Source: Methanobacteriota archaeon (GTDB lineage: Archaea; Methanobacteriota; Methanobacteria; Methanobacteriales; Methanobacteriaceae). Taken from it: a stretch of DNA of 64,000 bases. The notes under the pieces are model-generated. The model made no database searches, had not been told where the DNA came from, and saw only the letters and a program-made list of their open reading frames with translations. Position 1 is the first letter of the stretch, and each line of letters opens with the position of its first letter. The stretch lies in assembly GCA_963787255.1 (NCBI GenBank), contig CAWBCJ010000029.1, positions 320,001 through 384,000 on the forward strand. Direction: 5' to 3'. This document shows, piece after piece, positions 30,483 to 31,932 of this stretch. The translations under genes were made by a program, and so were the position numbers.

Positions 30483-30636
30483 TAAGTTATATCTTCTTAG
30501 TTTTAAGTTAAAATTTATAACTGATATGTTATAACTTCTTAGTTTTAAGTTACAAGTTATATGTTAAAATTCATAACTAATATGTTATAACTAATAACTT
30601 CTAAGTAATTACTTATAAGTTATAAAGAATAAGTTA
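30483..30636. repeat. In-phase array of 22 degenerate palindromic heptads, consensus TAA[G/C]TTA (candidate centromere)
   Basis: Uninterrupted 7-bp register: TAAGTTA TATCTTC TTAGTTT TAAGTTA AAATTTA TAACTGA TATGTTA TAACTTC TTAGTTT TAAGTTA CAAGTTA TATGTTA AAATTCA TAACTAA TATGTTA TAACTAA TAACTTC TAAGTAA TTACTTA TAAGTTA TAAAGAA TAAGTTA. 19 of 22 have G/C at the centre. Confidence 0.9.
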
Positions 30637-30703
30637 AAATGATCTTCAAATCTTGCCATAAAACATATTTGTATTTTTTGTGGCATGCAAAAATCTATAA
30701 TTT

Positions 30704-30742
30704 TTAACCCTCAACACATTTTGAGGGTTAACATTTTTTTTT
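30704..30742 (+). terminator. 11-bp perfect stem-loop followed by T-tract
   Basis: TTAACCCTCAA-cacatt-TTGAGGGTTAA then a T run, between the convergent radical SAM gene and par operon. Confidence 0.6.
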
Positions 30743-30758
30743 AATCATTAAAAAAAAA

Positions 30759-31115
30759 TTATATACGTTCTTCAAACAACTCCCAAATTTCAGGATATTT
30801 TTCTTTCACTGCTTTTTCAATTAAAAGAGACGCTTCACTGCTGATGCTGAATTCAGGCTCTGTTTTCCTTAAATATCTCAAAACAGCAGCCGATTTTGCA
30901 GACCAAAGTGAAATACGTGGATTTTTCTTTATTTCAGCTAAAACTCCATCAATAACTTCTTCATTTAATTCCAAAACATTATCTACAGTTAATTTTTCAT
31001 CATGCTCTTCATCGGGAATGACTGTTTTAGGATCATCTTCTTTAACGTATTTTTTACTAATTAAAGCATCGAGCCCCCGTCCAAGCGCGCCACCCTGTTT
31101 TTTATCGGTGCTCAT
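30759..31115 (-). CDS. ParA partner: ParB-type N-terminal peptide plus predicted ribbon-helix-helix domain
   Basis: N-terminus KKQGGALGRGLDALI. C-terminus PRISLWS-AKSAAVLRYLRKTE-PEF-SISSEASLLIEKAV fits a strand-helix-helix pattern. Overlaps the parA end by 14 nt. Confidence 0.75.
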   Translation of the reverse strand: MSTDKKQGGALGRGLDALISKKYVKEDDPKTVIPDEEHDEKLTVDNVLELNEEVIDGVLAEIKKNPRISLWSAKSAAVLRYLRKTEPEFSISSEASLLIEKAVKEKYPEIWELFEERI

Positions 31116-31887
31116 TATTTCCCTCCATTTCTAATATCTCATCAGCAAGATCCATATAAGCAACAGAACCTTTACACTCTTCATCATAGATGATACATGG
31201 TTTTGCATGGCTTGGAGCTTCTGCAAGCTTAACATTACGAGGTATAGTTGTTTTAAAGATATTTTCTTTCTCTCCAAAGTATTCAATAACATTGCTGTAT
31301 ACTTCTCTTCCAAGCCTTGTTCTGGAGTCATAAAGAGTAAGAAGAATCCCTTTAATTTTTGAAGGACTGTCAAGACGGTTTGAGACGAGTTCCATAGCTT
31401 CTATAAGATCTGCCATCCCTTCAAGAGCATAAAATTCTGCTTGAATTGGGATAATAACACTATCTGAAGCTACCAACGAATTTATGGTTAGCACGCCGAG
31501 AGATGGAGGCACATCAATAAAAATATAATCGTAAGAATCTTTAATAGTTTCTAATTTTTCTTTTAATATGGAATGAAATCCTATTTCCCCACTTAATTCA
31601 ATTTCAGCACCGCTTAAAGATATATTACTTGGAACGATGCCCAATCTATCAATTCCCGTGGGCATTATAGCTTCCGAAATAGAGTTTTTTCCAGTTAAAG
31701 TTGTATATATAGTCTTTTCAAGTGTGTTTTTCTCTATTCCAAAGCTTGTAGTGGCATTGCCCTGAGGATCAATGTCTACAAGTAAAATATTTCTGTTATT
31801 AATGGCCAGTGCAGTTGAAAGATTAACTGCAGAAGTGGTTTTACCGCAGCCTCCCTTCTGATTTAATATTGCAATTATTTCACCCAT
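31102..31887 (-). CDS. parA: ParA/Soj family partition ATPase
   Basis: Deviant Walker A NQKGGCGKTT, DIDPQGNAT, IDVPPSLG, EFYALEG, and Soj DNA-binding segments YDSRTRL and IPRNVKLAEAPSH. Confidence 0.93.
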   Translation of the reverse strand: MGEIIAILNQKGGCGKTTSAVNLSTALAINNRNILLVDIDPQGNATTSFGIEKNTLEKTIYTTLTGKNSISEAIMPTGIDRLGIVPSNISLSGAEIELSGEIGFHSILKEKLETIKDSYDYIFIDVPPSLGVLTINSLVASDSVIIPIQAEFYALEGMADLIEAMELVSNRLDSPSKIKGILLTLYDSRTRLGREVYSNVIEYFGEKENIFKTTIPRNVKLAEAPSHAKPCIIYDEECKGSVAYMDLADEILEMEGNNEHR

Positions 31888-31904
31888 TTTGAGCGCCCTC
31901 CAAT

Positions 31905-31932
31905 TTACTTCTAAATTGTAAGTTATAAGTTA
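31905..31932. promoter_or_regulatory. Four in-phase heptads between the parA TATA box and RBS (candidate autoregulatory operator)
   Basis: TTACTTC TAAATTG TAAGTTA TAAGTTA. A minus-strand TTTAAATA box lies at about 31936-31943 and a GGAGG RBS at about 31897-31901. Confidence 0.65.

Follow-up and report, generated by a model that had tools for sequence, protein, structure and literature searches.

The parA-segB operon and its heptad array

The stretch of DNA analyzed here, called the window below, is 64,000 nucleotides long and comes from contig C29 of a Methanobacteriota archaeon of the family Methanobacteriaceae. Near its middle lies a two-gene operon that encodes a ParA-type ATPase and a small partner protein, and rows of a 7-bp sequence (heptad), TAA[G/C]TTA, stand on both sides of it. 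An initial annotation, made from the letters and a list of open reading frames (ORFs), had proposed that this is a chromosome-segregation system of the ParA type. The locus has the following features:

31102-31887, minus strand: parA, in the position of segA; 261 aa, a Soj-type Walker ATPase, from the ORF list and the Pfam match AAA_31
30759-31115, minus strand: segB homologue; 118 aa, matching SegB in the Protein Data Bank (PDB; 7duv) at E 1.4e-11
30706-30729, minus strand: hairpin with an 11-bp stem and A/T runs on both sides, 3' of segB, between operon and array
30483-30636, no strand given: main heptad array of 22 phased 7-bp units in both orientations; proposed centromere (segS-like)
31905-31932, no strand given: promoter heptads TTACTTC TAAATTG TAAGTTA TAAGTTA; proposed operator
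31933-31943, minus strand: TATA-like box TTTAAATATTA (gene's strand), directly upstream of the heptads

The order is parA then segB, with segB starting directly downstream of the ParA-type gene and overlapping it by 14 nt (31102-31115 in the ORF list). This coupling had been annotated correctly, as had the deviant Walker A of the ATPase, which reads NQKGGCGKTT (K11-GGCGKT-17, fitting KGGxxK[ST]). Pfam matches to AAA_31 (2.6e-63) and CbiA (1e-23) assign the protein to the ParA/MinD fold family. Its closest relatives in the PDB were an unnamed ParA (8ray, 8e-67), Helicobacter Soj (HpSoj, 8e-60) and Thermus Soj (TtSoj, 4e-53). The Soj matches run full length, whereas Sulfolobus SegA (7dut, deposited under the name Soj) reached only 2e-19 over aa 4-169; it is not the closest relative, and the ATPase does not group as SegA-type. 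Judged by these matches, the protein holds the operon position of segA but is a Soj-type ParA, much nearer to bacterial Soj than to Sulfolobus SegA. R189 and R217, whose equivalents presumably have a role in Soj, are invariant among 29 orthologues. The genome has no second ParA of the same type, and no canonical ParB is encoded near parA; the three ParB_N matches found genome-wide are weak and on other contigs.

We compared the 118-aa partner with PDB sequences by phmmer and obtained 7duv_A, Sulfolobus solfataricus SegB, over aa 15-115 (E 1.4e-11) and 7dv2_A over aa 52-115 (E 9e-9). Pfam and NCBIfam gave no family match for the partner, and neither a ParB_N (Srx/CTPase) nor a helix-turn-helix (HTH) domain was found in it with these two collections. 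In an alignment of 33 SegB orthologues, two blocks are invariant or nearly so, with a charged, variable linker between them. The N-terminal block reads L11-G-x-G-L-(D/E)-A-L-I19 (A10-LGRGLDALI-19 in the window protein), and the C-terminal block extends from N65-PRI(S/T)LWS through KYP-IW (K64-NPRISLWS-72 ... P87). The linker varies widely in length, with open frames of ~100-290 aa across the order.

The SegB-DNA structure of Sulfolobus is reported to show base contacts by K52, W56 and K75, and a dimer-dimer contact by P72 in the alpha2-alpha3 loop that enables extended coating of DNA; K52 is given as arginine in euryarchaea (PMC8682754). The phmmer alignment places K52, W56, K75 and P72 on R67, W71, S90 and P87, respectively, all four of which are invariant in the 33 orthologues. 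A published signature filter for SegB, K/R-D/N-P-K/R-I-G/T-V/L-W-S-Y/P-P/E (PMC12139799), agrees with the window protein (K64-N-P-R-I-S-L-W-S-A-K74) at 8/11 positions, the differences being S for G/T and A-K for Y/P-P/E; the sixth signature position is T in 10/33 orthologues. From its sequence, the partner is a homologue of SegB, the ribbon-helix-helix (RHH) centromere-binding protein. SegAB had been brought in only as a comparison by the initial annotation; the relation stands, and it goes beyond analogy.

The N-terminal block had been described as a ParB-like peptide. ParB proteins bind the ParA dimer interface through an N-terminal aliphatic stretch round a central R/K (R13 in Myxococcus), a motif reported to be required for ATPase stimulation (PMC12462528). 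In the partner, L11, G12, G14, L15, A17, L18 and I19 are invariant, and 14 of the orthologues have R as the central residue, 14 have K, 4 have M and 1 has L. When a profile of 32 N-termini was compared with 177,635 PDB sequences, the best match was Thermus Spo0J, residues 3-15, RKPSGLGRGLEAL (E 0.18). Three other searches were empty: residues 1-40 scored no homologue among longer proteins, and the first 27 aa had no match in the PDB by phmmer or in plasmids by tblastn. The likeness of LG(R/K)GLDALI to ParB's motif is thus suggestive, and the ParB-peptide label keeps its best match and lacks a significant one.

The heptad unit is a 7-bp palindrome centered on G or C. Tandem Repeats Finder reported 30481-30636 with period 7 and 22.3 copies. 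In phase from 30483, we counted the 22 annotated units, of which 5 are exact, 16 deviate at no more than one base and 20 at no more than two; at a random position of the genome, a unit within one mismatch has a probability of 0.0045. The array sits in the convergent gap between a radical-SAM gene and segB, beyond the hairpin at 30706-30729. The latter folds at -19.8 kcal/mol (z = -4.9; 0/200 shuffles fold equally well) and looks like a terminator. Across the 2,469,968-bp genome, the main array is the sole site with at least 4/8 in-phase units. When 3 units sufficed and gaps of at most 2 were allowed, 4 arrays came up genome-wide, the second convincing one at window positions 52689-52716. All 17 genome-wide matches to a triple unit (at most 3 mismatches) fall in C29:350504-384301, compared with 3 matches of the reversed control pattern; the main array accounts for 11 of the 17, the promoter for 2 and the 52.7-kb site for 3, and the last lies just past the window end.

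Metagenome contigs of close relatives from four DNA runs span the operon, and several end in or beside the array. One contig (run X6) is without 14 letters, i.e., two units, at 30597, and another (run X2) is without 20 letters at 30481. As the contigs belong to other populations, the missing letters are at most a hint of unit-number variation, and may instead reflect trouble in assembling repeats.

Heptads at orthologous and divergent loci

A SegB homologue is encoded in 146/151 genomes of the order, covering 27/27 genera, and in 284/301 genomes of a wider sample (215/223 of the high-quality ones). We compared 70 loci, namely the 30 best matches with 1.5-kb flanks and 40 from other genera with 3-kb flanks. 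The parA-segB pairing was seen in most of them; in a few (e.g., L013, L014, L026 and L073), one gene was missed by the script. Tandem Repeats Finder detected period-7 TAA[G/C]TTA arrays in nearly all of the first 30 loci. With a fixed rule, the 70 loci (345,013 bp) contained 142 in-phase arrays with 818 matching units, compared with a mean of 0.9 and a maximum of 2 arrays in 20 dinucleotide shuffles.

To locate the arrays relative to the genes, we used the 66 loci, from three families, that have both gene markers; L026 (truncated) and L073-L075 (SegB marker not found) were left out, and each has an array. In 63/66 loci, an array lies within 700 bp of the operon, which bears out the idea, put forward with the initial annotation, that orthologous loci should carry 7-bp periodic arrays. 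Arrays stand upstream of parA in 56 loci, downstream of segB in 32 and on both sides in 25. Of 138 arrays in these loci, the flanks hold 131; 4 lie within the bounds of the operon, and 3 are more distant. The smallest arrays have 3 units, and long ones span 59 (L045), 47 (L067), 38 (L047) and 36 (L059); the large array precedes parA in some genera and follows segB in that of the window. Among 1181 in-phase units over all arrays, TAAGTTA (184) and TAACTTA (183) are equally common. The array element turns over while the heptad unit persists. A constant unit in arrays of varying size and side fits selection on the motif, as opposed to inherited sequence.

At the promoter, two of the four annotated units are exact (31919-31932), and TTACTTC and TAAATTG have two mismatches each. 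Read on the gene's strand, the four lie between the TATA-like box and GGAGG/ATG; by its sequence and place, 31933-31943 is probably the TATA box. We printed the region upstream of parA for 53 loci, the ParA start pattern being unmatched in the other 17. In most of the 53, 2-4 heptads come directly after a TATA-like box (TTTATATTA or TTTAAATATTA), and GGAGG and ATG stand ~20-30 nt beyond the heptads. A protein bound there would cover the expected start-site region, which would permit autorepression.

Divergent SegB-like proteins have other heptads beside them. In three genomes, all from a single genus, there is a second pair of ParA and SegB-like protein, ~38% identical and with the strand PRLAFWD, together with perfect arrays of AGTATTT/TACTAAA:

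L105, 4358-4462: 15 copies
L106, 5137-5223: 12.4 copies
L107, 4386-4448: 9 copies

These arrays sit upstream of their own parA, and inverted AAAAACT/AGTTTTT units occur at the promoter. Beside a fourth paralogue (L108, strand PRISFWD), repeats with TAAGTTAT recur at intervals of 16 and 13 bp. On a contig from a viral collection (L110), 17 phased CTWWAGS units at 1871-1990 lie upstream of parA, and the SegB-like protein that follows ParA has the strand QSIAIWS. Another such contig (L109) encodes a ParA and a 258-aa SegB-like protein with the strand NPRISLWS and a long repetitive linker, but has no TAASTTA array in 5.4 kb. L109 apart, these sequences suggest that the recognition strand of SegB and the heptad sequence change together.

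These comparisons bear on the idea that a factor other than SegB binds the heptads, or that they form a structural or replication-linked element of the origin region, and adjoin segAB only through conserved synteny. The neighborhood, with the radical-SAM gene and thrS, is indeed well conserved, such that linkage alone could keep neighbors together, and L109 shares the recognition strand but lacks the heptads. We nevertheless consider this very unlikely. Arrays differ between genera in number, size and side while the unit stays constant and beside segAB; the divergent SegB-like proteins, whose loci are unrelated, are accompanied by different heptads next to the parA of their own pair; the unit shares the layout of a 6-bp palindrome plus S (G or C) with proven SegB sites; and orc1/cdc6 is 24-40 kb off, not adjacent.

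Synteny is kept among the orthologous loci for the radical-SAM gene, segB, parA and thrS. In the window, the neighbors include the following:

29341-30465, plus strand: radical-SAM gene with a C-terminal helix-hairpin-helix (TIGR03916, 342.7 bits vs the cut-off of 343.5)
32103-32324, plus strand: 73-aa ORF with a peptidoglycan-binding domain (PG_binding_1, 1e-18)
32564-34424, minus strand: thrS, split in two ORFs (NF003068)

Two of the core genes named as neighbors in the initial annotation, thrS and cfbB, were recovered, CfbB at 669.7 bits against a cut-off of 560 (NF033195). The radical-SAM gene, the convergent neighbor of segB, is conserved order-wide, and TIGR03916 is titled 'putative DNA modification/repair radical SAM'. 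The 73-aa ORF sits between segAB and thrS and has the same place in several relatives. The two thrS pieces, of 127 and 444 aa, match NF003068 positions 1-109 (the editing domain) and 175-612, and the frame shifts more than once over ~140 nt between them; this could be a broken gene or the result of draft-assembly errors.

The same context speaks to whether the locus might be the remnant of a partition cassette from an integrated plasmid or virus, without a chromosomal role. ParA and SegB-like pairs do occur on the two viral-collection contigs and as extra copies in some genomes, and the architecture resembles that of plasmid type Ib systems. On the other side, the operon occurs once per genome and keeps its core-gene context across 27/27 genera, no integrase or mobile genes are among the ORFs listed for the surrounding 7 kb, and both proteins are intact and strongly conserved. 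A remnant is hardly credible on this evidence.

Satellite clusters and the distance to orc1/cdc6

Heptads also recur at a distance from the operon. The window holds a secondary cluster:

52682-52723, no strand given: TAAGGTT TAAGTTA TTAGTTT TAAGTTA TAACTTA TCAGTCA, between ilvE and uppP, 21 kb from segAB

The ilvE-uppP gap carries a heptad cluster in four genomes of three genera, that of the window (G000), G088, G020 and G036. Other recurring cluster sites are beside a gene of 391-399 aa (G020, G006) and beside a flavoprotein-like gene (G036, G006). We further scanned five complete genomes for double heptads with at most one mismatch, using a reversed pattern as control. G020 had 13 matches vs 3 for the control and, among the matches listed, 12 lie within 1,286,879-1,362,103, i.e., 75 kb round segAB; G006 had 8 vs 3.

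The best Orc1/Cdc6 match in the window's genome is at C29:386324-387388, ~35 kb from segAB. The distance from segB to the top-scoring orc1 in the other genomes is as follows:

G020: ~40 kb
G088: ~39 kb
G026: ~24 kb
G036: ~31 kb
G006: ~309 kb of 1,522,738 bp

Hence, segAB lies 24-40 kb from the top-scoring orc1/cdc6 in 5/6 genomes examined. Origins in this group are presumably beside cdc6. A triple heptad, TCAGTTA TAACTTA AAATTTA, was also noticed at C29:384301-384321, ~300 nt past the window and ~2 kb from the top orc1/cdc6.

Heptads near genes raise the question of whether they and SegB form a transcriptional circuit only, in which SegB would repress its own operon and nearby genes such as ilvE/uppP, the arrays would be repressor sinks, and ParA would have some other positioning role. 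In favor of this, most genera have heptads directly adjoining the TATA-like box, the secondary clusters fall between genes and near gene starts, and RHH partition proteins of the omega type are reported to be repressors as well (bioRxiv 10.1101/2022.05.29.493902). The large array of the window, however, has no promoter to regulate, because it lies between convergent genes and beyond the terminator-like hairpin. Spans of 22-59 units are far larger than an operator, and a repressor alone would not easily account for the order-wide pairing with ParA or for the invariant N-terminal motif. Known RHH systems combine repression and partition, and the two readings are mutually compatible. As the whole explanation, a transcriptional circuit appears unlikely.

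Interpretation and comparison with known systems

Taken together, the best explanation is that the locus is a chromosomal SegAB partition operon of Methanobacteriales with its cis site, to which we assign a probability of about 75%. The three-part module proposed at the outset holds at the sequence level, with a Soj-type ParA as ATPase, a SegB homologue as adaptor, and a heptad co-conserved with the operon as candidate centromere. From the same comparisons, we infer DNA binding, autorepression, ATPase activation and segregation.

We propose that RHH dimers of SegB would each read one TAA-S-TTA heptad through the strand P66-R-I-S-L-W-S72, and that a row of such dimers, linked through the conserved loop proline P87, would coat contiguous heptads. 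On a 7-bp repeat, this row may wind into a left-handed spiral of protein, the form described for Sulfolobus SegB and omega. The 22-unit array past the terminator-like hairpin would be the main site of the partition complex, i.e., the centromere; the 2-4 heptads immediately after the TATA-like box would serve as operator in autorepression, and the small conserved intergenic clusters between segAB and orc1/cdc6 may be auxiliary loading sites. The flexible LG(R/K)GLDALI tails, dense on the array, would engage ATP dimers of ParA that are bound to DNA and set off their ATP hydrolysis, and the origin-proximal region would thereby be pulled along the ParA gradient on the nucleoid.

Several observations weigh against this reading. 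For the partner, the AlphaFold2 monomer has a predicted local distance difference test score (pLDDT) of 65 and a helix, not a strand, at 66-72, and Foldseek against the PDB ranked SegB chains first, but at E ~1 and template-modeling (TM) scores of 0.3-0.43; because both are too weak, the RHH fold is assigned from sequence. The Spo0J match at E 0.18 is not significant by itself, and M or L replaces the central R/K in 5/33 orthologues, though this residue is reported as critical for ParB function (PMC12462528). The ATPase is far from Sulfolobus SegA (2e-19, vs 8e-60 for HpSoj), which makes it less safe to transfer the SegAB mechanism to this system. Three of the 66 loci (L015, L016 and L027) have no strict array, only out-of-phase pairs of exact heptads, and L109 has no TAASTTA array in 5.4 kb despite the shared strand. 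Single exact heptads are not enriched in the window's genome (502 observed vs 1124 expected from base composition), and double heptads show no excess there (10 vs 16 for the control); the signal therefore lies in contiguity and clustering. Likewise, the AT-rich genomes have no genome-wide excess of double heptads (21 vs 22 in G088, 22 vs 15, and 12 vs 19 in G036); the matches nonetheless pile up at segAB, and only this clustering stands out. In G006, segAB is ~309 kb, or 20% of the chromosome, from the best orc1. Finally, the cumulative GC skew of C29 has its minimum at 678,627 and gives no origin signal near orc1; since the skew is uninformative, proximity to the origin is judged from the orc1 gene.

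A wider claim, for which we would put the odds slightly below even, is that the order as a whole segregates its chromosome by an evolutionary chimera, in which an archaeal RHH protein with a ParB-like activating peptide drives a bacterial-type Soj ATPase, acting on a regional heptad centromere of up to 59 units at segAB with conserved satellites towards orc1/cdc6. All SegB-type systems might then follow one grammar of one dimer per heptad, the heptad tracking the recognition strand. If this is true, sequence alone would suffice to predict the centromere wherever an archaeon or mobile element has a SegB.

The locus offers a directly testable centromere candidate, with a defined 7-bp unit, arrays at 63/66 loci, satellites and an operator layout. 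Methanobacteriales are mostly rods; some of them can be cultivated, and a few are genetically tractable. A 2016 review lists the form and clustering of the archaeal centromere, the spread of SegAB in Euryarchaea and its variations among the open questions of genome segregation in archaea (PMC5120986). SegB has been tied to spherical cells and called scarce in Euryarchaeota, and its euryarchaeal N-terminal domain has been called poorly conserved (PMC12139799). The SegB homologues in 284/301 sampled genomes bear on both the scarcity and the link with spherical cells, and the N-terminal motif, invariant within the order, bears on the reported poor conservation.

Among known systems, SegAB of Sulfolobus/Saccharolobus is like the present one in its SegB homologue, with the base-contact and dimer-dimer residues kept, in the order of parA then segB with a site directly upstream of the first gene, in the 7-bp register and the palindrome centered on G/C, and in the further sites scattered on the chromosome. 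The N-terminal tail of Sulfolobus SegB is reported to activate the ATPase, and the window partner also has an N-terminal tail. S. solfataricus SegB sites are given as TCTAGA-S-TCTAGA with an almost invariant core AGA-g/c-TCT, spread over the chromosome, and in Thermococcus, the same study, of 2025, reported a site of this type to be absent near segAB and expected a different motif (PMC12284271). The segS site of S. acidocaldarius is described as three 7-bp repeats, AGNGTNN (PMC12139799). The heptads here, TTATAA-S with the core TAA-S-TTA, have the same layout as the 6-bp palindrome plus S of Sulfolobus. The Sulfolobus motif itself is not enriched in the window (16 matches vs 13 expected), and none of the matches is in the segAB flanks. 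Unlike Sulfolobus SegAB, the system has the core TAA-S-TTA in place of AGA-S-TCT and 22-59 contiguous units in place of 2-3, its main array can be downstream of the operon, its Soj-like ATPase is no more than a distant relative of SegA, and its partner has a fuller, ParB-like N-terminus, LG(R/K)GLDALI.

The parallel with delta/omega of pSM19035, drawn in the initial annotation, survives in part. Both systems combine a small ParA with a small RHH protein, omega carrying a flexible N-terminal activating tail according to the available description, and both have contiguous heptads, direct and inverted, that also overlap the promoter. Omega is reported to bind the heptad WATCACW as one dimer per unit, to need at least 4 contiguous heptads for ATPase activation and to form a predicted left-handed spiral, and to repress, like other RHH partition proteins, at promoter-overlapping repeats (bioRxiv 10.1101/2022.05.29.493902). 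In contrast to pSM19035, this module belongs to an archaeal chromosome and lies among core genes, its arrays are longer (7-10 units in pSM19035), and its heptad is palindromic, which WATCACW is not. In layout, with long runs of adjoining heptads in both orientations over a promoter, omega of pSM19035 comes nearest to the present system. Homology to omega did not hold, as neither omega nor ParG is among the PDB sequence matches of the partner at E up to 10; as the sequences stand, the likeness to type Ib (delta/omega-like) systems is one of architecture only.

Bacterial Soj/Spo0J-parS is similar in its ATPase, of which the window ParA is a close relative, and in having several sites clustered near the presumed origin. 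It differs in that the partner here is without a ParB_N/CTPase or HTH domain, in that the site is a heptad array and not a 16-bp palindrome like parS, and in that a CTP-driven sliding clamp is not expected. In the main texts of the literature searched, we found no description of these Methanobacteriales arrays. Cassettes of segAB in Euryarchaea, Methanobacteriales included, have already been published (PMC5120986, PMC12139799), so the novelty rests on the centromere and not on the segAB genes. Compared with the known systems, the gene pair is known, and the new content is the heptad centromere, its regional satellites and the hybrid, Soj/ParB-like character of the system.

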